Under the pieces are notes generated by a model that made no database searches, was not told the DNA's origin, and saw only the letters and a program-made list of their open reading frames with translations. From contig CAVZRV010000035.1 in the NCBI GenBank assembly GCA_963777605.1, positions 96,001 through 160,000 on the forward strand: a DNA stretch of 64,000 bases, read 5' to 3'. The first letter of the stretch is position 1, and each line of letters starts with the position of its first letter. This DNA is from an uncultured Acidobacteriota bacterium (GTDB lineage: Bacteria; Acidobacteriota; UBA6911; RPQK01; JAPXNP01). The position numbers and the translations under genes were made by a program. This document shows, piece after piece, positions 3,041 to 29,464 of the stretch.

Positions 3041-5086
3041 ATGACCGGATTTGGCGCACGCAGATGGGGTCCAATCATAATAGCGGCATTTCTCAGCTTC
3101 GCTGCACCACATGCCGCTGATACCCTCCATCGCAGCGCGGCCCCCCAAAAGGTACAAAAACCTCCTGTAATCGACGGGCGCCTGGATGATGATGCCTGGA
3201 AAGAGGCCCCTGTACTCAGTGACTTCATCCAGTTTGAGCCGGACAAGGGAGCACCGGCCACTGTCCGGACTGAGGTGCGCGTTCTTTATGACGACACCCA
3301 TATCTATTTCGGATTCAAATGCTGGGATCCGGATCCCGACAAGATCGTACTGGGCACCGCGCGTGACGGTCTGAGAATGGGCACGGACAGTGTGGATGTC
3401 CTGGTGGACACATTCCACGACATGCGTACTGGTTACTACTTCCGCACGAATCCTCTCGGTGTCCAGCATGACGGACTCGTTTCGGACAACGGCCGGGTAG
3501 CGGACACGACCTGGGACGGAGTCTGGCAGTCGGAAGGCGCCTGGATACCGGAAGGATGGAGTGCGGAAATGGCGATTCCCCTGTCAACGGTCAAGTACCG
3601 GGAAGGCGAAGATCAGACCTGGGGCTTCCAGACCAGCCGCTACCTGCCTCGCAACCTTGAGAAGAGTTTCTGGACAGGGCCGCTTGAAGACTATAGAAAG
3701 ATGGATGGAAACGGGACCTTGACGGATCTCGATCTGTTGGCTCCTTCCCGGAGGCTGGAGCTGATCCCCCACCTACTCACCCAATTTGAGAAGGAAGGTA
3801 AAACACAGGTCGAAACAGGTCTGGACGCCCGCTATGATTTCACTCCCTCACTTTCGGGTCACCTAACCGTCAACCCGGACTTTGCCACGGTGGAAGCCGA
3901 CGACGAACAGGTGAACCTGACCCGTTTCGAGTTGGGCCTGCCGGAAAAGCGTCAATTCTTTATGGAGGGCAGTGCCGCATTCTCCCAGCGTATCCAGCTT
4001 TTCTATTCTCGGCGCATTTCGGATATCTTCGGCGGAGCCAAGCTATACGGCAAACTCGGGAACAACGAGATTTCCACGATAATCGTCCAGAGCAAGGAGG
4101 ATGACTACGGCCTGGATTCAGCCAATTACAGCGTCTTTCGGATCAAGCGCGACGTGTTGAGCAGCTCTTCGATCGGATTCTTGACAGCCAACCGCGTGGT
4201 CAATGGACGCGCACAGGGAACGGCGGGGCTGGACGCCGCACTCTTCTTCTCGGAAACTTTCAATCTGACCGGGCAATTCGCCGTCGGGTATGGAGAGGCC
4301 GGTAAGACGGACACCGCCTTCTTTATCCGACCCAGTCATGACACCTCGACTTTCCACATCCATCTCAGATTCACTCACCTGGGCGAGTACTTTGGCGACA
4401 ACGTCAACGCGGTGGGATACATCCAGGACGATAACCGAAACGAGCTCGACTCCGCGATATCCAAGACATTCTGGACCAACGGCTCTTTCCTCGACAAGAT
4501 CGACTACACGTCGAACTACAATGTTTACTGGGGCATGGACAAGGCACTTCGCTCCTGGGATGCGTGGAATGCCCTGACACTCGACCTCAGGAACAGATTC
4601 AGCTTCGATGTTCGCCATGAAGAGGAATTCAAACTGTTCGAAAAGGAATTCCGCAATCGTCAGACAACCTTCGGATCCGGATACAACACCCGCGAGTGGC
4701 AGTCCGCCGCAGTAAGCTGGACATTCGGGCGCAATTTCGATTCGGACTTCACCTTGATCGGCGCTGAACTGCGACGCAAACTGTCGGAGAATCTTTCCCT
4801 CGAGTACGGCCTCTCAAGGTTGACTCTCGACCCTGATCCCGAACTCGACAGTACGTGGATTCACTCGTTTCGTGCCACCCAGTATTTCCAAAAAGATCTT
4901 TACTTCAAGTTCTTTTACCAGACCAACTCCGCAATCGACAAACGGAATCTCCAGGCTGTATTCGCCTGGCGTTTTCAGCCTCCTTTCGGCCTGCTTCAAC
5001 TGGCCTATCAAAAGGGATCCTCCAGATTTGGAGAGCGTGGTGACCAGGGCGATATCCTCTTCATCAAGCTGGCTCTTGTGTTATGA
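3041..5086 (+). CDS. CBM9-like / DUF5916 secreted or outer-membrane protein
   Basis: PVIDGRLDDDAW, WSAEMAIP, TVNPDFATVEAD and LPEKRQFF motifs; signal peptide. Confidence 0.85.
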   Translation: MTGFGARRWGPIIIAAFLSFAAPHAADTLHRSAAPQKVQKPPVIDGRLDDDAWKEAPVLSDFIQFEPDKGAPATVRTEVRVLYDDTHIYFGFKCWDPDPDKIVLGTARDGLRMGTDSVDVLVDTFHDMRTGYYFRTNPLGVQHDGLVSDNGRVADTTWDGVWQSEGAWIPEGWSAEMAIPLSTVKYREGEDQTWGFQTSRYLPRNLEKSFWTGPLEDYRKMDGNGTLTDLDLLAPSRRLELIPHLLTQFEKEGKTQVETGLDARYDFTPSLSGHLTVNPDFATVEADDEQVNLTRFELGLPEKRQFFMEGSAAFSQRIQLFYSRRISDIFGGAKLYGKLGNNEISTIIVQSKEDDYGLDSANYSVFRIKRDVLSSSSIGFLTANRVVNGRAQGTAGLDAALFFSETFNLTGQFAVGYGEAGKTDTAFFIRPSHDTSTFHIHLRFTHLGEYFGDNVNAVGYIQDDNRNELDSAISKTFWTNGSFLDKIDYTSNYNVYWGMDKALRSWDAWNALTLDLRNRFSFDVRHEEEFKLFEKEFRNRQTTFGSGYNTREWQSAAVSWTFGRNFDSDFTLIGAELRRKLSENLSLEYGLSRLTLDPDPELDSTWIHSFRATQYFQKDLYFKFFYQTNSAIDKRNLQAVFAWRFQPPFGLLQLAYQKGSSRFGERGDQGDILFIKLALVL

Positions 5087-5494
5087 GGAGCTGCATCCGG
5101 GACCTCGTTCCAGAACCGTTAAATGCAGTGTCCCCGCACAGACGGTTTGCCAAAACATATACCCGGCTTGATCGAAATCCGGGCCCACAGATCTCCGCCT
5201 TTCATCTGCGAGCTTCGTCAGCGAAGAACAGCAGACAACCGTGGAACTGGGGCAGCAAATCAAGAAGTGAAGCTGAGCTCCGGTTGCTACTTTGCATCGT
5301 CCGTGAAATACGAGAAATTAACCAAGAACTGCTGCAGTACTGGCAGGGTGAAAGAGACTGAGTCAACATGCTCACTTATCAAATTCGGCCCCGTGTCTTT
5401 TCTACTCATGGAGATGATTCGCTACGCTTTCCTGCAGAGGGTGAAGTAAAGTTCCGGTTCTCCCCTCTTCAGCCGTTCGGTATGGAGGCCGGGA

Positions 5495-6301
5495 ATGGCC
5501 ATACGGCGGTGCGTTCGGTTCCAGAGACGGCCCTGTTCGATGCCAACACCGGTGCTCACACGATTAATAGTGGAACGGCTCCAGGAACACGCCATGCGTT
5601 ACAAGACAAACTTGGACCCATTTGCACGTAGAGAGGAAGGCTCCGAGACGAGGCAGAACAACGGAGGCGGAGAGCGGTCTTTCTTTATTTCTCGCTTGCT
5701 CACACTGCAGTACCTGGCCGCTGTCACGCTTTGCCTGGACGTGATCAGTCCAGACCAGATTTCGATCATTCCGAAGCTACTCATGGTGGGAATGCTGGTC
5801 GGTCTCGCCACGATTCTCCTCCTCTTGATGATCAAACCGGTCTTGCAAGTCGGGCCCCGGGGATTCAAATATCTCTGGCTCGAACCGTTTGAATGGGGTG
5901 ACATTGAGGAGATTGTCTACTTCAACGTCAGAGGTCTCGCCTCCATGAAAGTCACTCTCGATCGCGCGGTATTGAGCCGGACTCCATCCAGAATTGTCAG
6001 GATGATCTTCAAGGCCGGTGGGCGACACCTGTGGTTCAGAGGATGGCGGGGTATCGATCTGGAACAACTCACCGACGCGATTGGCGGATTTTCGAGATCA
6101 AAGAGGTCTTTTAGGGTGGAGTCCTTGCTTGGAGTATCGATGGTCGTAGGGATCGGGTTCACCCCCTTGGAAAAAGGCCTCATGTTTCTGTACGTGTCCG
6201 TTTTTCTCGTTTGGGCTGTGTCCGAATATCGCAAGCGATGGAAGAGACTGGCTCGGCGACGGCGCAAGCTCGAAAAGCTTCGAACTGACCAGCGTAACTA
6301 A
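5495..6301 (+). CDS. Hypothetical membrane protein
   Basis: About 4 hydrophobic segments; true start probably the ATG near 5594. Confidence 0.55.
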   Translation: MAIRRCVRFQRRPCSMPTPVLTRLIVERLQEHAMRYKTNLDPFARREEGSETRQNNGGGERSFFISRLLTLQYLAAVTLCLDVISPDQISIIPKLLMVGMLVGLATILLLLMIKPVLQVGPRGFKYLWLEPFEWGDIEEIVYFNVRGLASMKVTLDRAVLSRTPSRIVRMIFKAGGRHLWFRGWRGIDLEQLTDAIGGFSRSKRSFRVESLLGVSMVVGIGFTPLEKGLMFLYVSVFLVWAVSEYRKRWKRLARRRRKLEKLRTDQRN

Positions 6302-6408
6302 TGTTGCGCCTTCGGGAGGTAGAGTAGACAATGAACCTAAGAATCGGATTGGGTAACACCGCCTCGGTTAGTCGACACTGATCGGGTGAACAAAGGAGGC
6401 GCTCAACC

Positions 6409-7380
6409 ATGAATAGGGCCACCTGCCCGCTTTTGTACTTGCTACTCTTCTCAGGCCTCGCTTTGGGCGGTCAGGAGTACACAATAATTACCTGCAAAAT
6501 GGAGGAATTCCACCCGGGATTTTTTCGGATCACGGAAGACGGAATCAGTCGAACTCCACACTGTCGATGCGACTCGACTGACTTTCGTGCAGGTAAGCGA
6601 GATGGATTTCACATCCGAGTCGAACACTGGTCCAGTTCTGCACATCAACTCGTCTTCTATTTAGACGTGCCCGAGCCAGTTCGTATCCATCGGTTCGAAG
6701 TAAACTCTTCCTGGTCAAACTTCCGACACCTTGGGATGCACTCTTCGTTGCCGGTCCAAGTCGATGCCCAGAGAACATTTCGCTTGACCCCGACCAACTC
6801 TTGGGACTTCACCGCCGGAAATAGTTTCAACGTCCAGATTGAAGTCTCCCTACTTTCTGAAGCACCGGAGCGCCGCCACCTCATCGAGTTGTCCGGCGTT
6901 CTCGAGGAACGAAACGGATCGAAACCATTTAAGACGATTGAACTTAAGCCCGAGAAGACCGACAGACAGGTAGCCCCGGAAGAGTTTTCACGTGCGATTC
7001 GTGGAGGCCCATGTTCTGGCGTGCTCTTCTATGTCGCGAGCCGCGTACTGGATCGGGAGACCCTTATCCTTCGCCTGGAGGTAGGTCCTCCGATCGAGAT
7101 CCGTGGCATCAAGGTTCTGGGACCTTACAGCAACCCTGACGGGTTTCGCTCGCTTGTTTCCGTGTTTGGAACGAGAGTGGAGGAGGCGCTCCCGGCAAAG
7201 ACCGATCGACTCAACGATGTCTACTACCGTCTGAATCCCGAACATCGAATGCAGTCCTCAGGATCACTGGAGAACCTGGAGATCGAATTCGAAATTGAGA
7301 TCGGCGGATGCCCATCGACGCACGGAGAGGTGAACGAGGGAACCGAAACTCTTCGGTATCGAGCCCGCCCGATGAAATAG
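6409..7380 (+). CDS. Secreted hypothetical protein
   Basis: AGGAGG RBS; signal peptide; internally duplicated domain. Confidence 0.7.
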   Translation: MNRATCPLLYLLLFSGLALGGQEYTIITCKMEEFHPGFFRITEDGISRTPHCRCDSTDFRAGKRDGFHIRVEHWSSSAHQLVFYLDVPEPVRIHRFEVNSSWSNFRHLGMHSSLPVQVDAQRTFRLTPTNSWDFTAGNSFNVQIEVSLLSEAPERRHLIELSGVLEERNGSKPFKTIELKPEKTDRQVAPEEFSRAIRGGPCSGVLFYVASRVLDRETLILRLEVGPPIEIRGIKVLGPYSNPDGFRSLVSVFGTRVEEALPAKTDRLNDVYYRLNPEHRMQSSGSLENLEIEFEIEIGGCPSTHGEVNEGTETLRYRARPMK

Positions 7381-7422
7381 AGCAATCCATTCAGCAAAGG
7401 CGATGCCTCAGTCCGGATCTCT

Positions 7423-7986
7423 CTATTGCTCCTTGTCTCTAGCGACAAGTCGCATAATTCCCTCCACGATCAGACTGTGCTCAACTTGCGACTCACCACA
7501 GCGGAATGTAATCGCAAAATCGAACATGGCGCCAACCTTGAATTCGGAGGAGAGGGAAAAGTACATCTGTTCGCTCTTCTGAACGTGGTGTGGATACGCT
7601 GGACCGAAGACCCCTTCCCCGTCGACAGTGGCGAAAGCCGGACTTGGGCGATACCTCTGCGGTAGACGGACACCGCTGATCTCAGCTGGGTGCTCCGTAT
7701 CGAAGCGGAGATTGATCTGGCCCTCTTTGGCGGGCAGTCCGGACAGGGAAACTCGGCCGCAGGCGCCGACCGTCATCGTGGCAGTCTTTCCGTCGTCGGA
7801 AATTTTCGTCCTGACTCCAGAGATCGAAGCATTGCCGAACTCTGGTTCAATCGACCTGATGACATGGAAATCCTCGTTGGGAACCCCCTGATTCGGCTGA
7901 CCCAAAACCGGAGCCAGAAGTCCCACAAAAGCCAAAGCAAGGACCAGAACGAACGTGACCATCGGCCGCACCCCAGCTCCTACCAC
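7423..7986 (-). CDS. Secreted hypothetical protein
   Basis: N-terminal hydrophobic signal; 187 aa. Confidence 0.6.
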   Translation of the reverse strand: MVGAGVRPMVTFVLVLALAFVGLLAPVLGQPNQGVPNEDFHVIRSIEPEFGNASISGVRTKISDDGKTATMTVGACGRVSLSGLPAKEGQINLRFDTEHPAEISGVRLPQRYRPSPAFATVDGEGVFGPAYPHHVQKSEQMYFSLSSEFKVGAMFDFAITFRCGESQVEHSLIVEGIMRLVARDKEQ

Positions 7987-20515: not shown

Positions 20516-21030
20516 ATGAAAATCCTCCGTCACAGACTCGTCTTCGATGATGGCGAGCCTGGTTCGGGCGGGAGTTCCCCGACACGGAAGTCATCCAGGC
20601 GACCCACAAGCACGAGAGCGAACCGGCCGGCTGGCACGTCTTTACCGAAGCTCAGATCGATGCGGCCCTGAAAGCATCGCTTCTCCTGATCGAAAAGTAC
20701 GGCCTCAAAGATGTCCTCGGTCATGAAGACGTTTCTCCCGGCCGGAAACAGGACCCGGGACCGGCCTTCCCCATGTCCAGCTTCAAGGCCCGGCTGCTGG
20801 GTCGCCAGGAAGAGGGGTCCATGTCGTTGAAGACCACAACGAATCTGAACATCCGCACCGGCCCCGGGACCCAGTTCCCGACGATCGAAGGTGGCCCGCT
20901 GCCTCCAGGTACTTTGGTCGTCGTCCTCCGCCAGGATGGGAGCTGGCGGTTTGTCGACGTGCTCTCCACAATCAACGGGGTGATGGATCTCCAGGGGTGG
21001 GTTCATGGGCGGTTTTTGGGACCGGCTTGA
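20516..21030 (+). pseudogene. N-acetylmuramoyl-L-alanine amidase (Amidase_2)-SH3b fusion with an internal deletion
   Basis: MKILRHRL start; FTEAQI, LGHEDVSPGRKQDPGPAFP; C-terminal LNIRTGPGT...GWVH SH3b; N-terminal catalytic part missing. Confidence 0.75.
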
Positions 21031-21235: not shown

Positions 21236-22760
21236 ATGCGAAGTCTCACAGCAAGGGCGCTTGCTCTTTCCGTTGTTCTCGTCACCCTTCTGACCGTCTT
21301 CGGCTTTCCGGCATATGGGCAGGCTGGGTTCGGGGACGATCGGGTCATGCTGCAGGGTTTCTACTGGGAATCGCACCGCCACGGCCATTCCGGATCGCTT
21401 CCCCCAGTATGGTGATAAGAGCTGGTATGAGATCGTGTCCGAGCAGGCGGAAACGATCCGGGACGGTCGATTCGATCTGATCTGGCTCCCCCCACCGTCA
21501 TTCGCCGGGGAAATCAGCGCCGGCTACAATCCCAAGGAATATTTCAACCTCAACAACAGCTACGGCCCTTTCGAGACACATCGTTCGATGCTGGAAACCC
21601 TGCTGGAACATGGAATCGAGCCGGTCGCCGACATCGTCGTCAACCATCGGGACGGATCCACGGGCTGGGCCGGATTTACAGACCCCGCCTGGGGCACATG
21701 GGCGATCACCCGATTCGACGAGGCCTTCACGAATCCCGCCTCGGAAGTGTTCGACACTCCCCTGGCGGAAAGGGGAGCCGAAGAAGAGAGCCCGGTCGAG
21801 TATGCCGGGCACGTTGGCACAACCTACCAATACCCTTCGTTCCGGGACCTGGATCACACCAATCCAACGGTTCGGCGAGACCTGATTCGGTATCTATTGC
21901 AGCTCAGATCGATGGGCTACCGGGGCTGGCGCTATGACATGGTCCACGGCTACCACGCCAGATGGGTGGCAGTCTACAACCGGGCGACGCGGCCGACCTT
22001 TTCCGTGGGCGAATACGACTGGGACAAACACGCGGCGCAACGGGGATGGAGCTGGTACACGGCTACAACCGCAGGGGATCTCACGACGGCGAGCGATGTC
22101 TTCGATTTCACCACCTTTGCGACGCTGAAAAACAACAAGGGGAACTACCTGGCTCTTTACGGATATGGGAACGGCATCGGAATGGTGGGAGACACGACCA
22201 ACGGGCAGGCCTGGAAAAACCGGGCGGTGACGTTTCTCGAGAATCACGACACGGGATACCGAACCAATGAAGATGGCTCAGCGGAGCTTCACCACGAGTT
22301 CGACAGCTTCATGAATGACTGGCAGGTCGAGCAGGGCTACGCCCACATCCTGACCCACCCCGGAGTCCCCTGCGTCTACTGGAAGCACTACTTCGACTGG
22401 GGGACCGACCTCCAGGCGAAGATCCGCGCCCTCATCAACGCGCGGAAAGTCGCCGGCATTCACTCGGGCAGCACGGTCTACACCCAGCAAAACGCACAGG
22501 CGCGCGGCGTCTATGCCGCCGCCGTTACCGGTTACTTCGGCGTCCTCTATGTGCGCATCGGAGGGAGCGACGCCGATTGGCAGCCCTCCTACTCAGACTA
22601 TCGGGACTATCGGGAATACGCCCGGGGGTCAGGGTGGACCGTCTGGGTCGGCCTTCCCGGTAATCCCGATTTCCAACAGGCTCCCCTCAAGACGGCCCTG
22701 CCGGTTCCCGAGTATCGAGGACCCGAGGAGATCGCAGTTCCCGACGAGTGGCTGAACTGA
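21236..22760 (+). CDS. Secreted GH13 alpha-amylase with one frameshift near 21388
   Basis: Signal peptide plus VMLQGFYWES in an upstream frame; DIVVNH, GWRYDMVHG, VGEYDW and FLENHDT conserved regions. Confidence 0.85.
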
Positions 22761-23256
22761 TCCTCATCCACAAACGCAATCAGGGGCATCTCTAAAGCTG
22801 AGTGGGTCGAGTGCACACGATGCGACGGGATTGCCCGTTTATCACCGAAGTCAGCAGTCTTCAGATGCCGGGGTTATTTGCTTGCGACTTATCACTCAGT
22901 CCGATAAAATTCCATGCAACTCACAACGCAATTACCGACTCTCGGTTACACACTGCGTCCAGTAGCGGCTTCCAATTGGATTATCGAGACGGAATCACGC
23001 CGAATCGTTTGGAGCTGCTGGAAAGGAGGTCAGTCATGCGTAGGTCGCCCCGGGTAATACCGGAAGCCAGACTGCAGTCCGTCCCTCCGTGATCGACATG
23101 GCTTCGATTCATCAGGCAAGAGTACGCACACCATAAACTGGCTGCGCAACCATAAGGCGCGAGCCCTTGGCGCTTGGAGGAGACCCCGAGGCACTCCAAT
23201 CGAGAACCTCCGATCATGTTCAACCCTTCAGACAATGTCTCAACAGAGGTCGCAGC

Positions 23257-23508
23257 GTGAGTGAAACAGAGAGAATTCGTGAAATCAAGGCGAGAGCCGA
23301 ATCCGACTTGCTCAAGATCCCGGGTGTGACCGGAATTGATATCGGTTACAAAAAGGTCGGAGGCCGGAAGACGGCGATTCTCGCGATCCGAGTCTATGTC
23401 GAGAAAAAGGGAGATGTCGCCGAGAACCAGTCTATACCTTCAGAAATTGAAGGCGTCCCGACCGATGTGATCGAGCGGAAGTTTGTCCTGCACGCCGATC
23501 AGCAGTGA
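23257..23508 (+). CDS. Stand-alone paralogue of the protease N-terminal prodomain (83 aa)
   Basis: GAGGT RBS and GTG start; PGVTG.D.G.K...[10 protein letters not shown]....IP....[12 protein letters not shown] shared with the N-terminus of the next gene. Confidence 0.8.
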   Translation: MSETERIREIKARAESDLLKIPGVTGIDIGYKKVGGRKTAILAIRVYVEKKGDVAENQSIPSEIEGVPTDVIERKFVLHADQQ

Positions 23509-23597
23509 CCGGTACCAGCGCTGCGCCTGGGCCGTTGGAGGGTGGGGCCGAAGCGTCGCTAAATCCGCGCGGAAGAGGACCAGAGAGGAGTCCATTA

Positions 23598-25004
23598 ATG
23601 AAGACACTGAGCGAGATTCGAAGGGTGAAGAAGTCCCTTGAGGAAGAGATCATGGGCCGCCCAGGAGTCACTGGGTGCGATGTCGGACCGAAGATCGTCA
23701 AGGGGAAGAAGACAGGCGACTTGTCCATTCGAGTTTACGTGGAGAAGAAGGAAGATGTGCCGAAGAAGGACCAGATACCGAAAGCTTTCCTGGGGGTGAA
23801 AAGCGACGTCATCGAACGGAAATTTGTGCTGCACCAGATGAAGGCGAAGCTCGAGGATTTGAAGCCGAGAGCCGACACCGGGACCTATGATCCCCTTGTC
23901 GGCGGCATCAGCCTTGGTCCCTGCCGGGTGATCGGGGGGTACGTCTACACCGGGACTTTGGGCGCTATCGTCCGGGACAATGCTTCCAATGCCCCGATGC
24001 TATTGAGCAACTTTCACGTCATGTGTGTGGACGATGCCTGGGGTGTGGGCGATACCATGGCCCAGCCGAGCCGAGTGGATACAGGGTCCTGTCCCGCTGA
24101 CGTTGTGGGCACACTTCAGCGTTCATCGCTCGGGGGTCAGGTCGACTGCGCTGTGGCAGATATCACCGCACGAAGCAATGCCTGTGAGATCGTGGATATC
24201 GGCGCCGTCAATGGCACCGGGACGGCCACTGTTGAGATGGCCGTCAGGAAGAGAGGGCGTACGACAGGCCTTACTTATGGAATCGTCGACACGGTCGACC
24301 TGACCGTCAGCATCGACTACGGGGACGGGCTCGGTTCGGTCACCTTGACCGATCAGATCGGCATCGACGTTGATCCCGCCCAGAGCGTGCAGTTCGGCAA
24401 CTCGGGCGATTCGGGTTCTGTCGTCGTCGATGACGACCGCAATATTGTTGGGCTCTACTTCGCCGGAACCGACGACGGATCGTACGGCGTCGCCAACCCG
24501 ATTCAGTCGGTCCTGGCTGCGCTGAATATCAGCGTGTGCGTTCCCAAGATCAAGGAGATCAAGGAGTTCAAGGAACCCAAAGAATTCAAGGAGTTCAAAG
24601 AGCTCAAGGAATTCAAGGAGCCGAAGGAGTTCAAGGAGTTCAAGGAGTTCCGAAAGGAATTCAAGGAGCCCAAGGAGTTCAAGGAGTCGAAGGAGAGATT
24701 CAAGGAGTTCAAGGAGAAGGATAAGGATATCTACGAAGATTTCCCAGGCGGTCCCTTCGATCCGGGTCCGTTCGATCCCGGGCCTTGGGGCCAGCGATCC
24801 CTGGAAGAGCGCTTGGCTCGTCTCGAGACGGTTGCCAACCAGTTGGTGCACTTCATCAATCCGGAGATGCGTCCCGAGCTTGCGCGCTCAGCGTTGGCCC
24901 AAGAACCAGATTTGAGGAAAACTCAGGAAAAGCTCCAGAAAGAGGCCTCGGACGCTAAACAGGCCAAGGACAGTAAGGACGTTGAAAAGCCTCGCGAGCA
25001 GTAA
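23598..25004 (+). CDS. Nal1-like trypsin-fold serine protease with a (KEx)18 repeat and C-terminal helical tail
   Basis: GAGGAG RBS; GTLGAIV, SNFHV (His), VDCA (Asp), KRGRTTG, GDSGS (Ser); no signal peptide. Confidence 0.88.
24552..24719 (+). repeat. Coding 9-bp tandem repeat (AAGGAGTTC consensus) encoding 18 Lys-Glu-X units
   Basis: [56 protein letters not shown]. Confidence 0.95.
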
Positions 25005-25049
25005 GGAATTGGCGTGGGACGGTGACCGAGCCTCTCGTCCGGGTCTCGC

Positions 25050-25790
25050 ATGTGGATAGTTTTGGGGAGTTTCAACGACGTCGGAGCGCTCTGGGCCTAC
25101 GAGGGACTGAAGGCGAGGGGACTTGAGCCGCTTGAGTTTGTCTCAAGTGAGTCCCTCGCCTACAGTCTCTTCTGGGAACATCGTGTCGGGCGAAGTGGCT
25201 CGACCTACACGGCATTTCGGCTGGCTGATGGCCGTTGCTTCACGAGCAAGGAAATCCGGGGGGTATTGAACCGCCTGGTCCATCTGCCGACGGACCATTT
25301 CGCCGTCGCGCAGCCTGGAGAGCGGGCCTACGCCGGCCAGGAATTGACGGCGTTCGTTCTGAGTTGGCTGACTTCCCTGGGGCCAAATGTGCTCAACCTG
25401 CCCTCACCCCAAGGGCTGTTTGGCCGCTGGCGAAGGCCGCTGGAATGGCTGCAACTGGCGTCACGGGCGGGTCTTTCAACCCGAGATTACCCGGATATCG
25501 CCTCTGAAATTTCCGGTGAGGAACCGGACCGTTTCTTGCGAGGCAGCCGATCAAACCGGATGGCCTTGGTGTTGGATGACACCGTCTACGGACCTGATCT
25601 TCCCGCCAGGGTGCGGTCTGGAGCAATCCGACTGGGCCGGCTTTCCGAAACGAGACTCCTGGGCGTTTCCTTCCATCCGGGATCGGAAAAGGATTGGGTT
25701 TTCGAAAGCGCGACACCTCTTCCTGACCTGCGGCCGGGCGGAAACATCTTTCTCGATGGACTCATGGAGGCTCTGACTCAAGAACGATGA
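25050..25790 (+). CDS. Degenerate ATP-grasp-like protein
   Basis: Pre-grasp-like N-terminus (IRGVLNRL, VLNLP, ASRAGL); lacks the K..G, QEF and EVN motifs (has FESATPLP). Confidence 0.6.
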   Translation: MWIVLGSFNDVGALWAYEGLKARGLEPLEFVSSESLAYSLFWEHRVGRSGSTYTAFRLADGRCFTSKEIRGVLNRLVHLPTDHFAVAQPGERAYAGQELTAFVLSWLTSLGPNVLNLPSPQGLFGRWRRPLEWLQLASRAGLSTRDYPDIASEISGEEPDRFLRGSRSNRMALVLDDTVYGPDLPARVRSGAIRLGRLSETRLLGVSFHPGSEKDWVFESATPLPDLRPGGNIFLDGLMEALTQER

Positions 25791-26713
25791 TTCTCTTGTG
25801 CGGCATTCCCACTGAAGGTCCCCTTGCGCTGCTTCGGGCGGAGGTGGAGAAGCTCGGCTATCCCTACGTCCTGTTCAATCAGCGGCACTTTGCCGACTCC
25901 GGGATCGACCTTCGCCTCTCATCCGGGAAGGTCGCTGGGACCATTTCTACGGCGGGACGAACCTATCGGCTCGAGGATATCTCAGGAATCTTTGTGCGCC
26001 TGATGGACGAAAGGGAGTTACCTGAGATCCTGGAGGAACCAGAGGACTCTCCACTGAAACGGCACTGCCGTAAGCTTCACGAGTCGCTTGTCGAGTGGTG
26101 TGAAATCAGTCCCGGTCGGGTCGTAAATCGAGTGGCTCCGATGGGCTCCAACTTCTCGAAGCCGTACCAGGCACAGCTGATTTGTCGGCAGGGATTCTTG
26201 ACTCCAGAGACGCTCATCACAAATGACCCGCTCCTCGCGCGAGAGTTCTACCAGACCCGAAGGAAAGTCATCTACAAATCGATCAGTGGGGTCCGCTCGA
26301 TCGTTCAGCTGATGAAACCGGAGGATCTGGATCGGCTGGATTCTTTACGCTGGTGCCCGACCCAGTTCCAGGAATTCGTCGAGGGCGAGAACGTGAGGGT
26401 CCACACGATTGGGCAGACGAACGTCTTTGCCACCCGGATTGTTGCAGAAGCGACCGACTACCGCTACAGTCGCGCGGGCCAGGACCGGGATACGGAACTC
26501 CAACCGTGGTCCATTCCCGACGAACTTGCCGAGCGTTGTTTGAGACTCGCCCAGTCGCTGGGATTGGCCTTTGCCGGAATCGACTTGAAAATCACTCGCG
26601 AAGACGAGGTCTTTTGTTTCGAGGTTAATCCCTGCCCCGCATTCAGCTACTACGAATCCTACACGGGCCAGCCGATTGCCCGGGCCCTGGCGGAATACCT
26701 GGTCGGGCAGTAA
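25787..26713 (+). CDS. RimK/graspetide-synthetase-like ATP-grasp ligase
   Basis: SKPYQ, TPETLITND, IYKSISG, QFQEFVEG, GIDLK and FEVNPCP motifs; ATGA overlap with the upstream gene. Confidence 0.9.
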   Translation: MILLCGIPTEGPLALLRAEVEKLGYPYVLFNQRHFADSGIDLRLSSGKVAGTISTAGRTYRLEDISGIFVRLMDERELPEILEEPEDSPLKRHCRKLHESLVEWCEISPGRVVNRVAPMGSNFSKPYQAQLICRQGFLTPETLITNDPLLAREFYQTRRKVIYKSISGVRSIVQLMKPEDLDRLDSLRWCPTQFQEFVEGENVRVHTIGQTNVFATRIVAEATDYRYSRAGQDRDTELQPWSIPDELAERCLRLAQSLGLAFAGIDLKITREDEVFCFEVNPCPAFSYYESYTGQPIARALAEYLVGQ

Positions 26714-26953
26714 CCCCAGCCGGCGCGGGCCGCCGGACTCTTTGCGGGCATTTTAGAAATCTCTTTCCGACTGAAGGGATCTCATGTTCCATTGAAAGAG
26801 AAACGTGTCGAAGCGAAGACGACCGTGCCCTGAATCGCCAGGGAGCAGGAGGCGATTTCCGGCGAGTTGTTGGGTGTGGAAGACCGCCTCGAAGGTGGAA
26901 CTGTGCTCTGTCCTGAACCAGCCTCGCGGTTTCACTGGAAGCAGCCACGAGGG

Positions 26954-27474
26954 GGCTTTGTCAAGTTGAGCCAAGGTCAGCGTGATCAGCCAGAATTGTT
27001 GAATGAGCACCAGCTATAAAGGCGTGTGTTTCCCTCCCGAGATCATCAGTCATGCGGTCTGGCTCTACCATCGTTTCGCCCTCAGCTTTCGGGATGTCGA
27101 GGATCTGCTGGCTGAGCGTGGAATCATTGTTTCGCACGAAGCCATCCGTTTCTGGTGTCTGAAGTTCGGACCGGAATACGCTCGAAGGCTCCGAAAGAAA
27201 CAAGGTCGATTGGGGGGACATCTGGCATGTCGATGAAGTCTTCGTCAAAGTCCAGGGACAGCAGAGGTATCTGTGGCGCGCCGTCGATCAAGACGGCGAT
27301 GTTCTCGACATTTTGGTGACGAAGAGACAAAATAAACAAGCTGCCACGCGGTTCTTTCGCAAGCTGTTGAAGGGACAGGGTTCGTCGCCCTGGAAACTGG
27401 TCACCGATAAACTCCGGAGCTATTCTGCCGCTCATGGCGATGTCTTTCCCTCGATCGAGCATCGAACAGGTTAG
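26954..27474 (+). mobile_element. IS6-family element, frameshifted and truncated by IS1634
   Basis: GGCTTTGTCA end; FPPEIISHAVWLYHRF, YLWRAVDQDG, VTDKLRSY. Confidence 0.85.
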
Positions 27475-29464
27475 CCCAAGTTCGACAGTTGAGCCTGTCC
27501 GGGAGGGATTTTTCGGCTTATTCTGCTGATAACTTCTCTGTTTTCAATGGCCATTTTCCGGCGAGTGCGTGTAGTGGAGACAACCCCGTTGCGGACGGGG
27601 GGTTGAGGGCCCGATACTGGGGTCATGTTCCTTCGACCCAATCGCCGGCGTCGCAAAGGGGAAACCTACGAGTACTGGACGCTGGTGGAATCGGTGCGCA
27701 CGGCGCGGGGGCCGCGGCAGCGGATCGTGGCAACGCTGGGAAAGCTGCCCGGGTTGGACGAGGAAGAGCGGGCCGGCTGGGAGGAGATTGCGCGGTTGCT
27801 GGACGGGGAACCACGCTCGGCGGCCCAGCGAAAGCTGTTTGAGGCCGATCCGGAAGACCCGCCGCAGTGGGCTCAGGTCAACCTGCGTGGAGTCCGGGTG
27901 GAACGGGTCCGCGAGTTCGGCAAGGTGTGGTTGGGGTTGGCGTTGTGGCGCCGGTTGGGGCTGCACCAGTTCTTTGCCGACCACAGCCACCAGGGACGTG
28001 AGCAGGTGGACTGGGCGACGGTGGCCTGCATTCTGACGCTGGGACGATTCTGTGCCCAGGCCTCGGAGTTGGCCTTGGGCGAGCGGTGGTATGCGACGAC
28101 GGCGTTGGAGGATCTGGTCGGGGTGTCGGCCGACGCGGTGTACGACAACCGCCTCTATCGGGGCCTGGATCAGATGCTGCCGCTGCGCGACACCCTGTTC
28201 AGCCACCTGCGGGAACGCTACCGGAGCCTGTACGGAAGCCGCTTCGAGTTTCTGCTCTACGATGTCACCAGTACCTATTTCGAAGGCCAGTGCGGGAGCA
28301 ATCCGCTGGCCCAGCGGGGCTACAGCCGGGACAGTCGTCCGGACTGCAAACAGGTCTGCATTGGACTGGTGGTGACTCCGGAAGGGTTGCCCCTGGCCTA
28401 CGAGGTGTTTGCGGGAAACCGTGCGGACGTGACCACGGTCGAGGACATTGTGGAGTTGATGGAACGCAAGTACGGGCGCGCGCAACGGATCTGGGCGATG
28501 GACCGGGGCATGGTCAGTGAAGACAATCTGGACCATCTGCGTCGGCGCAACGCCTGGTACATCGTGGGGACACCGAAAGCGAAACTGAAACAGTTCGGCC
28601 GGGAACTCGAGGAGAAGACCGAGTGGCAGGAGGTCCAGCCCGGGCTGGAGGTGAAGCTGATCGAGCATCCGGACGGGCGGGGCCAGGAGCGGTTCGTGCT
28701 GTGCCGCAGCCAGGCCCGGCAAGCCAAAGAAGCGGCCATGCTGGAGCGGCAGCGGGAGCGGTTGCGGGCACACCTGGCGGCGATTGACGCGTCGCTGAGA
28801 AAGCGGCCGCAGGATCCGGAGTCGGTGGGCCGGCGGATCGGCCGATGGCTGGGGCGCCACACGGCGGCGGAGAAACTGTTTCGGGTGGAGGTGATCGTCG
28901 AAAAGAGTCGTGCCGTCCGTTTGCAGATCGAGGAGGACGAAGGTCGACGGGACTGGGCGCAGGCCGCCCAGGGAGCCTATCTGTTGCGAACCAACTGCAC
29001 GGAGACGGATCCGGTCCAGCTCTGGAAGTGGTACATGCATCTGACCGAGGTCGAGGATGCCTTCCGGATCAGCAAGTCGGATCTGGGATTGAGACCGGTG
29101 TTTCATCAGCGGCAGGACCGGGTCGAGGCCCATTTGCTGATCTGCTTTCTGGCGTTGGCTCTGTGGCGAAGCCTCGAACAGTGGTTGAGCGCCAAAGGGT
29201 TGGGAGACTGTGCACGGCGAGTGCTGGAACAGATGTCGACGATCCGATCAATGGACGTGGTGCTGCCCATCAAAGACCGGGCAGAAGTCCGCCTGCGACT
29301 GGTGGGCAAACCCGAACAGCCCACGGCGGAGTTGATGACCCGCATGCGCCTGGGCCTGCCCACCCGACCGAAAGTGATTCAAAATGTAGTGGAGAAAACG
29401 TAAGACCGCGGACTGCATCTAAACGACTTACCGCGATTTATACCCCTTAACTGTCGAACTTGGG
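27475..29464 (+). mobile_element. IS1634-family element
   Basis: Perfect terminal inverted repeats CCCAAGTTCGACAGTT / AACTGTCGAACTTGGG. Confidence 0.9.
27625..29403 (+). CDS. tnp: IS1634 DDE transposase
   Basis: LYDVTSTYFEG, GYSRD.RPDCKQ, MDRGM, VEDAFR..KSDL.LRPVFH. Confidence 0.93.
   Translation: MFLRPNRRRRKGETYEYWTLVESVRTARGPRQRIVATLGKLPGLDEEERAGWEEIARLLDGEPRSAAQRKLFEADPEDPPQWAQVNLRGVRVERVREFGKVWLGLALWRRLGLHQFFADHSHQGREQVDWATVACILTLGRFCAQASELALGERWYATTALEDLVGVSADAVYDNRLYRGLDQMLPLRDTLFSHLRERYRSLYGSRFEFLLYDVTSTYFEGQCGSNPLAQRGYSRDSRPDCKQVCIGLVVTPEGLPLAYEVFAGNRADVTTVEDIVELMERKYGRAQRIWAMDRGMVSEDNLDHLRRRNAWYIVGTPKAKLKQFGRELEEKTEWQEVQPGLEVKLIEHPDGRGQERFVLCRSQARQAKEAAMLERQRERLRAHLAAIDASLRKRPQDPESVGRRIGRWLGRHTAAEKLFRVEVIVEKSRAVRLQIEEDEGRRDWAQAAQGAYLLRTNCTETDPVQLWKWYMHLTEVEDAFRISKSDLGLRPVFHQRQDRVEAHLLICFLALALWRSLEQWLSAKGLGDCARRVLEQMSTIRSMDVVLPIKDRAEVRLRLVGKPEQPTAELMTRMRLGLPTRPKVIQNVVEKT

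Follow-up and report, generated by a model that had tools for sequence, protein, structure and literature searches.

A candidate protein-modification cassette of a graspetide-type ATP-grasp ligase, its truncated twin and a Lys/Glu-array protein with a conserved C-terminal motif

The window analysed here, a stretch of 64,000 nucleotides from an uncultured Acidobacteriota bacterium (assembly GCA_963777605.1, contig CAVZRV010000035.1, positions 96,001 to 160,000), harbours four co-oriented genes on the + strand (g1-g4; positions 23257-26713 according to the list of open reading frames, ORFs). They are treated here as a candidate cassette for protein modification, in which an ATP-grasp ligase (g4) of the graspetide type would act together with an inactive paralogue (g3) on a Lys/Glu-rich array carried by the upstream gene product (g2). 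An initial annotation of the same sequence had described four such ORFs, with g1 as a copy of a part of g2 and with g3 and g4 coupled by ATGA, and this layout was borne out in full. The features are as follows (lengths in amino acids, aa):

23257..23508, + strand: g1, 83 aa, GTG start, AGAGG upstream
23598..25004, + strand: g2, 468 aa, NAL1-like serine protease with KE array, spacer and docking tail; proposed substrate/payload protein
23598..24545, + strand: g2 aa 1-316, N-domain and trypsin-fold protease domain
24015-24017, 24144-24146 and 24411-24413, + strand: codons of the g2 catalytic triad, H140, D183 and S272, respectively
24546..24728, + strand: g2 aa 317-377, (K-E-x) array; proposed site of modification by the ligase
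24729..24794, + strand: g2 aa 378-399, Gly/Pro-rich spacer of 22 residues
24795..24911, + strand: g2 aa 400-438, helix and conserved docking ("follower") motif
24912..25004, + strand: g2 aa 439-468 and stop codon, K/D/E/Q-rich C-terminal extension
25050..25790, + strand: g3, 246 aa, truncated and, by prediction, catalytically dead graspetide-ligase paralogue (pseudo-enzyme partner)
25787..26713, + strand: g4, 308 aa, predicted intact graspetide-type ATP-grasp ligase

The ATG of g2 is preceded by a ribosome-binding-like stretch (AGAGAGGAG) and its start was taken at 23598; a 499-aa ORF from 23505 represents an upstream extension of g2 and was not chosen. The TGA stop codon of g3 overlaps the ATG start codon of g4 as ATGA. 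According to the tail alignment, the K/D/E/Q-rich C-terminal extension occurs mainly in protease-fused forms and is missing from many others. A scan of positions 22700-27100 for promoter and terminator consensus sequences yielded nothing exceeding shuffled expectation.

Judged from its sequence, g4 is an intact ATP-grasp ligase of the graspetide type. It matches (i) the RimK Pfam model above cut-off (36.2 vs 21 bits), (ii) the graspetide models of NCBIfam, i.e., TIGR04187 (E 2.5e-37; 128.8 bits, below the curated cut-off of 350) as well as those for MvdD (E 7.5e-27) and MvdC (E 2.2e-24), both below their NCBIfam cut-offs (scores for the named models beside TIGR04187, i.e., TIGR04184 and TIGR04185: 94.3 vs 475 and 86.2 vs 425 bits), and (iii) rimK_fam (TIGR00768), where it stays below the cut-off of 143.4 bits (45.4 bits; E 6.6e-12), in addition to weak matches to the MptN and LysX models. 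Sequence matches in the PDB at E<0.01 are confined to graspetide ligases, namely PsnB (1e-22), MdnC (1e-20), AMdnB, MdnB, CdnC and, at the lower end, PruB (1e-12); no RimK is found among them at this threshold. Accordingly, g4 is more similar in sequence to the characterised graspetide ligases than to other ATP-grasp families and, with regard to the placement between graspetide maturases and RimK raised with the initial annotation, lies nearer to the former. Residues K164, Q195, R204, D266, E279 and N281 are present in g4 and invariant in 16 of 16 homologues; we take them to be the nucleotide- and Mg2+-binding and catalytic residues of the ATP-grasp fold. An equivalence to Gln207 of MdnC is suggested only by the alignment with PsnB.

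Its RimK Pfam score and the weak matches to rimK_fam, MptN and LysX would also be compatible with an activity resembling that of RimK or tubulin glutamylases, by which Glu or a different amino acid would be attached to side chains of Glu or to amines of Lys within the array. Such an attachment is highly improbable, since graspetide maturase models outperform rimK_fam by about 25 orders of magnitude and PDB matches are restricted to graspetide ligases; furthermore, it would leave unexplained why Lys and acid residues are equally numerous in the arrays (see below).

The g3 protein displays no match in Pfam, NCBIfam or, by phmmer, at significant level in the PDB. Its family profile, in which the central domain is largely absent and the positions aligned to E279 and N281 of g4 are replaced, is collinear with that of g4 (62 % probability, E 7e-5). 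The AlphaFold2 model of g3 (predicted local distance difference test, pLDDT, of 90) has its best fold matches in PruB, PsnB, MdnC, MdnB and CdnC (E 1e-10 to 5e-8; template-modelling score, TM, 0.6-0.72), with RimK behind at 2e-6. Due to the collinear profile, the missing central domain, the replaced residues and the graspetide-ligase fold, g3 is regarded as a truncated, dead twin of g4. The pairing of a degenerate with an intact ATP-grasp protein, as recognised in the initial annotation, is thus upheld by profile, fold and residue evidence.

The set of loci kept for comparison comprises 80 members and spans Acidobacteriota, Chloroflexota, Nitrospira, Gemmatimonadota, Verrucomicrobiota, Proteobacteria, Myxococcota, Actinomycetota, Bacteroidota, WOR-3 and Syntrophobacter. 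A g3 homologue is located directly upstream of g4 in all 80 of them, and the two genes overlap by 4 nt in 59 of the 73 loci where this could be measured. The gene preceding g3 ends in a K/E(D) array, a Gly/Pro spacer and a conserved motif in each of the 77 loci with upstream sequence, its median distance to g3 being 64 nt. This count is composed of 75 of the 80 loci recognised by regular expression plus two motif variants found by direct translation (RPNL in L045 and RPDV in L064); the three other loci missed by the regular expression (L042, L055 and L071) are without upstream sequence. Genes providing both Lys donors and Asp/Glu acceptors are therefore found directly adjacent to the ligase pair in 77/77 loci, and the check put forward with the initial annotation, whether homologous ATP-grasp pairs occur together with K(E/D)x repeats attached to different host domains, proved positive.

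Homologues of g4 amount to 4449 proteins at E<=1e-5 among 6588 candidates, the best 120 being 57-64 % identical to g4 except for one 99 %-identical near-copy. Scanning the contigs of GTDB species genomes gave at least 596 matching stretches and at least 581 confirmed loci; cultured, non-pathogenic carriers among the matches listed are Acidicapsa dinghuensis 4GSKX, Archangium minus Cbm 6 and Opitutaceae bacterium EW11. In close relatives g4 is rare, occurring in 2 of 41 genomes including that of the window itself; the other (G014) has a 99 % identical g4. Positions 22125-26736 of the window share 98 % DNA identity with positions 3339-7950 of locus L005 from G014, a genome assigned to another GTDB genus. 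The matching stretch stops just past g4 and just before the insertion sequence (IS) elements described below, and elsewhere only short matching pieces are present, suggesting that the two genomes either came to share an island recently or are closely related.

The conserved C-terminal motif of the upstream gene products reads HFIx4RPDLx2GALx2EpD; all 54 aligned tails share F, I, R, P, L and E, and H, D, L and A are almost invariant. The g2 product is the sole protein with this tail in the window's genome. Upstream of the motif, g2 carries an array of 61 residues (21 K, 18 E and 2 D), which at DNA level corresponds to a 9-bp unit in 17.9 copies (24550-24716, score 161 in Tandem Repeats Finder), and period-3 K/E arrays occupy the same position in related loci. 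A search with the 72-aa tail restricted to longer proteins returned 6 proteins. Far more informative was a profile search of 1.84 billion proteins, yielding 593 cluster representatives at E<=0.001 (290 at <=1e-10). The 150 best representatives include 146 that match the regular expression for the motif, which is followed by a median of 32 residues; of the 124 with enough sequence upstream of the motif, 117 have K and D+E contents there of 12 % or more each.

With respect to the remainder of these proteins, variability prevails. Most of the 150 best representatives, namely 120, have a length below 330 aa, and the 30 longer ones comprise 19 NAL1-like or trypsin-like proteins, one Peptidase_S8, one with a weak lectin match and nine without any match. 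Across the 80 loci the NAL1-like domain is present in 18, Peptidase_S8 was detected in 7 of 20 tail proteins scanned, and a subtilase serine motif was recognised by eye in four more outside these 20 (L053, L059, L068 and L073). The module is hence hosted by NAL1-like S1 proteases, S8 subtilases, one TIG-domain protein or, most often, by nothing else. The stand-alone forms (about 180-330 aa) start with repeats right away, consist of almost nothing but array and display no signal-like segment by eye. Overall, substrate candidates range from 58 to 1834 aa, some of them carrying folded enzymes. Since the N-terminal part varies and is most often missing altogether, the conserved core of the cassette consists of the array-plus-motif protein, the dead ligase and the ligase, with the protease as an optional payload.

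This distribution bears on the role of the protease, which had been viewed in the initial annotation as a self-processing precursor releasing cross-linked cores. Such self-processing is not part of the core logic of the cassette, given that the NAL1-like domain is confined to the 18 loci and most members are without any protease domain. In a more general form, the array could still represent a multi-core precursor of a ribosomally synthesised and post-translationally modified peptide, cut by the fused or another protease into small active cyclic Lys-Glu peptides. Multi-core graspetide precursors are indeed known (PMC5934393), serine proteases fused to the module come from two unrelated families (NAL1-like S1 and S8), and surveys of such loci report a strong peptidase link, as in PMC8939145 or in PMC13097080, where among the new RODEO groups a variety of proteases is encoded near group 32 and long repetitive precursors are listed for groups 34 and 35. 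Nevertheless, small released peptides are distinctly unlikely as the product, considering that (i) the protease is absent from the majority of members, (ii) neighbourhood clustering with crude longest-ORF calling retrieved no fourth conserved gene (exporter, protease or immunity) in more than 11 of 81 loci (one apparent cluster consisted of antisense ORFs over g4), (iii) neither a signal peptide was recognised by eye nor a conserved cleavage motif between repeat units, and (iv) a three-residue unit with variable third residue would make an odd core.

The arrays are 31-245 aa long (median about 98 aa) and end at a median distance of 33 aa from the motif (interquartile range, IQR, 28.5-43). Their period of 3 is evident from 874 K-K pairs at lag 3 compared to 21 at lag 1, and K is followed by E/D at lag 1 in 1053 cases. 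The ratio of K to acid residues is close to 1:1 (median 0.98, IQR 0.93-1.00, r 0.99 for 190 proteins), a value which is partly built in, since the definition of the array demands both types of residue. Arrays made, at period 3, of exactly the residues that graspetide ligases join support the assignment of the array as substrate. We infer, with good support, that the array is modified by the ligase, and the corresponding claim of the initial annotation gains from the 77/77 association, the kinship of the ligase and the predicted docking of the tail (see below).

A different role has been put forward for peptidases of ATP-grasp branches 7 and 8 (PMC8939145), namely to cleave other cellular proteins and thereby feed the ligase. 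Applied to the present locus, the array would be a charged linker and the tail a tether, in agreement with a complex model that places the motif confidently but not the array. Such a supply function is very doubtful here, however, as most loci encode a peptidase-free tail protein consisting nearly entirely of array, and as the period-3 Lys/acid pattern and the 1:1 ratio would have no explanation.

The interaction of the tail with the ligase pair was approached by complex prediction. The tail (131 aa) against g4 plus g3, the only combination scored, reached 0.63, 0.62 and 0.56 in three runs (overall 0.62), compared to 0.00 for the best of three controls. The corresponding mark is reached by 58 of 80 solved complexes and by 2 of 110 mismatched pairs; leader-ligase complexes have already been solved, and likeness to them may partly account for the passing score. 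At least 22 % of contacts are common to the runs, and the partner pLDDT is at least 41. The confident interface comprises tail residues 79-102, which correspond to the motif, and involves residues 6-11, 32-33, 71-79, 163-174 and 183-192 of g4 as well as residues 87, 91 and 94-95 of g3. It joins invariant tail residues to the invariant g4 residues G6-E10, Q32-R33, R71-D74 and P79, and many of the contacting residues of g3 and g4 are family invariants. The motif is thus predicted to dock on g4.

Classical graspetides have short precursors, N-terminal leaders and homodimeric ligases. The present proteins do not conform to the scheme of a short precursor with N-terminal leader, the recognition motif being C-terminal. 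In the closest solved relatives of g4 and g3, i.e., the microviridin (MdnA/B/C) and plesiocin (PsnA/B) systems, a recognition sequence likewise docks on the ligase; it belongs, however, to the leader of a separate precursor, in contrast to a C-terminal motif on proteins of up to about 1800 aa. An engineered C-terminal leader was reported to be functional (PMC13003496).

The following proposal builds on the architecture, folds, conservation and co-occurrence established above; within it, bond type, ring topology, the intra- or inter-chain state of the links and the biological role are conjecture. In this proposal, g4 would be the active graspetide-type ligase of a three-part protein-modification cassette, g3 would probably stand in for the second protomer and help to hold the substrate, and the C-terminal module of g2 would be the substrate. 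The helix with the motif HFIx4RPDLx2GALx2EpD would serve as a natural C-terminal "follower" docking on g4, and the Gly/Pro spacer (about 30-40 residues) would bring the (K-E/D-x)n array preceding it within reach of the active site. There, the ligase would activate side-chain carboxylates of Glu/Asp with ATP for attack by the epsilon-amines of Lys, resulting in many Lys-Glu isopeptide (macrolactam) links along the array. This chemistry is suggested by the relatives of the ligase, the residue content of the array and published precedents. The product most likely remains a protein, containing a charge-neutralised, stapled and protease-resistant segment, which in the window would carry a NAL1-like serine protease as payload and in most relatives would stand alone. 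For the proposal as a whole, i.e., stapling of the array by the g3/g4 pair under direction of a C-terminal follower with a product that stays protein, we regard the chances as evenly balanced.

Several observations weigh against this proposal. On the side of the enzymes, g4 stays under every curated graspetide cut-off of NCBIfam and thus outside the named subfamilies, so its chemistry could differ, and g3 supplies only four confident contact residues. The complex model does not place the array confidently in the active site (partner pLDDT 41-46). With respect to the substrate, the arrays occur in two phases (KEx 1009, EKx 673) with no single ring register evident, and no array by the definition applied here was detected in 14 of 221 motif-bearing sequences, some of which are short and perhaps fragments. 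The balance of K and acid residues together with the charge pattern could reflect selection for solubility or disorder alone, and the conserved acids of the motif itself (D/E after RP, ExD) could be the true modification sites.

The links could also be formed between chains, with Lys joined to Glu/Asp of another chain or to acids of the tail, giving rise to covalent oligomers or a gel-like network (e.g., a scaffold in the cytoplasm or a stress-protective matrix, able to carry proteases). Long polyampholyte arrays with 1:1 ratio of K to acid (median about 98 aa, up to 245), stand-alone proteins made up nearly completely of array, the reported cross-linking of protein dimers by an engineered graspetide synthetase (PMC13003496) and the multi-chain assemblies seen in solved structures of NAL1, whose fold comes closest to that of the payload, are all compatible with such networks. 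In the papers considered, however, natural graspetide ligases form intramolecular rings (PMC13097080, PMC12848669), and the location of the docking motif on the same chain as the array favours a reaction in cis, rendering inter-chain linkage quite improbable.

The payload of g2 was assigned from its fold. The AlphaFold2 model of g2 aa 1-321 (pLDDT 88) has rice NAL1 as its top PDB fold matches (8PMM, 7Y77; E 2.5e-17, TM 0.69 with Foldseek), followed by bacterial S1 proteases, e.g., SGPB and alpha-lytic protease. The match to NAL1 (7Y77, 8PMM and related entries) covers both the N-domain and the trypsin-fold domain and includes the H/D/S triad. The triad motifs NFHV, VDxAV and GDSGS (H140, D183 and S272 in g2) are retained in 13 of 13 aligned homologues. 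The description of g2 as a Nal1-like protease of trypsin fold with intact triad could thus be confirmed. On the other hand, identity to rice NAL1 is just 18-20 %, and the g2 score with Pfam Nal1_C is below the gathering cut-off (20.5 vs 26.1 bits), as are matches to S7 and S32; phmmer of g2 against the PDB returned no significant match. A match of g2 to the Glu-specific protease 1HPG (E 0.49) is not significant, and prediction of S1-pocket specificity from sequence was considered and dropped as unreliable. To our knowledge, plant NAL1 has no KE array, docking tail or ATP-grasp partner. The assumption of a cytoplasmic g2 product is based solely on the absence, judged by eye, of an N-terminal hydrophobic segment. 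A stapled tail may regulate or protect the fused protease, or may be cut by it.

The small g1 protein shares 54 % identity with g2 residues 5-80 (E 6e-18) and weakly matches NAL1_N (PF25608; E 0.005), its 16.9 bits remaining below the gathering cut-off of 27. Its sequence identifies it as a free-standing copy of the N-terminal (NAL1_N-like) domain of the protease, for which "prodomain" may serve as a presumptive label. Separate copies of this kind are confined, among the 80 loci, to those of the NAL1 type, lying upstream in L005, L006, L007, L052, L057, L061, L063 and L080, and downstream on the opposite strand in L060, L071 and L078.

Individual loci depart from the common organisation. In L041 from a Longimicrobium metagenome-assembled genome (MAG), g3 and g4 form one 573-aa ORF without intervening stop (6002-7723; RimK domain at aa 395-568), possibly a single natural g3-g4 fusion or else an assembly error; the same locus encodes the 1834-aa TIG-domain protein with KE array and motif. 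Two separate tail-like matches precede one ligase pair in L015 (4395-4610 and 5938-6171) and L082 (4942-5046 and 5972-6097), which suggests that some loci hold more than one substrate gene. Tail proteins of L050, L060, L078 and L080 have short Cys-rich ends (..GCKGC, ..CGCGN) and contain TFI or PFI in place of HFI. In L064 (Woeseiaceae MAG, about 60-870) and L075 (Bacteroidota MAG, 3-362), a 7-residue unit similar to EPDIKKN replaces K-E-x and still pairs Lys with acid residues; the array of L064 appears frameshifted.

The cassette of the window is followed directly by two remnants of mobile elements, a fragmented transposase of IS6/IS240 type (27003-27474; PF13610 match on 27313-27474) and an intact-looking 592-aa DDE transposase of IS4 type (27625-29403; PF01609). 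Upstream are located an alpha-amylase family gene (21315-22760; PF00128, PF07821) and a small ORF with a bacterial SH3 domain (20773-21030), neither of which is conserved beside the cassette in other loci.

Among published systems, "branch 8" of ATP-grasp proteins (Makarova et al. 2022, Biol Direct 17:7, PMC8939145) combines a truncated, inactive ATP-grasp protein with peptidases of several unrelated families. For this branch, the paper, a survey limited to proteins of <=150 aa, reports no precursor, and its authors suggest that the peptidases supply substrates from elsewhere. Compared by description only, the present locus fits branch 8: a dead ATP-grasp protein belongs to 80 of 80 loci, and peptidases of the unrelated families S1 and S8 occur, though most loci have none. 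It differs with respect to the substrate, for which we propose the array and motif at the C-terminus of the peptidase or, in the more frequent case, of a protein of 180-330 aa without further domains.

Lys-to-acid rings on repetitive sequences are known from two further systems. The corallotide system (CorA/CorB, graspetide group 15; PMC13097080) comprises a TIGR04187-type ligase forming five KxxxD lactams on a precursor of about 22 kDa, and resembles the proposed cassette in its repeated Lys-to-acid isopeptide rings and unusually large precursor; moreover, the CorA product stays large and tends to aggregate. In contrast, genes for a 2-oxoglutarate oxygenase and a protein of beta-lactamase fold are part of the cor cluster, a dead ATP-grasp twin is missing from it, an N-terminal domain of CorA precedes the modified repeats, 5 motifs compare to 10-80 K/acid pairs in the present arrays, and occurrence is limited to Corallococcus. 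In case of myxomiditide (PMC12848669), MyxF processively introduces tandem Lys-Glu lactams on (KxxE)n, and the example of MyxD1-MyxD2 demonstrates that one ATP-grasp enzyme can need partner ATP-grasps, both paralleling the present proposal. The differences are the KxxE spacing as opposed to a period of 3, the small precursor, and the retained catalytic activity of the dependent MyxD2, as opposed to the loss of the ATP-binding part in g3.

These comparisons qualify the novelty claimed in the initial annotation: loci combining such a ligase with a dead twin and peptidases have already been published as branch 8 (PMC8939145), whereas the substrate module and the C-terminal follower appear to be unreported. 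No paper assigning a Lys/Glu array plus C-terminal motif as substrate was found in the literature search, the supplementary tables of PMC13097080 and PMC8939145 lying outside of it.

For a widespread branch of graspetide-type ligases that was left in print without a substrate, a specific candidate is now proposed. If correct, three features would be met here for the first time in a graspetide-type system: natural guidance by a C-terminal follower, dependence on a dead ligase as obligatory partner, and action on large folded proteins in which tens of cross-links may form. The enzyme class would thereby shift from peptide natural products towards post-translational modification of proteins, and a genetically encodable, ATP-driven tag for Lys-Glu stapling would become available to protein engineering. 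One may further speculate, although we consider it unlikely, that the cassette makes a protein material rather than a peptide natural product, i.e., chains of isopeptide rings or inter-chain networks in the cytoplasm, made from long, genetically encoded (Lys-Glu-x)n arrays, with grafted proteases of unrelated families as cargo or held in check. In that case, it would provide soil bacteria with a covalently stapled scaffold or a stress-protective matrix.

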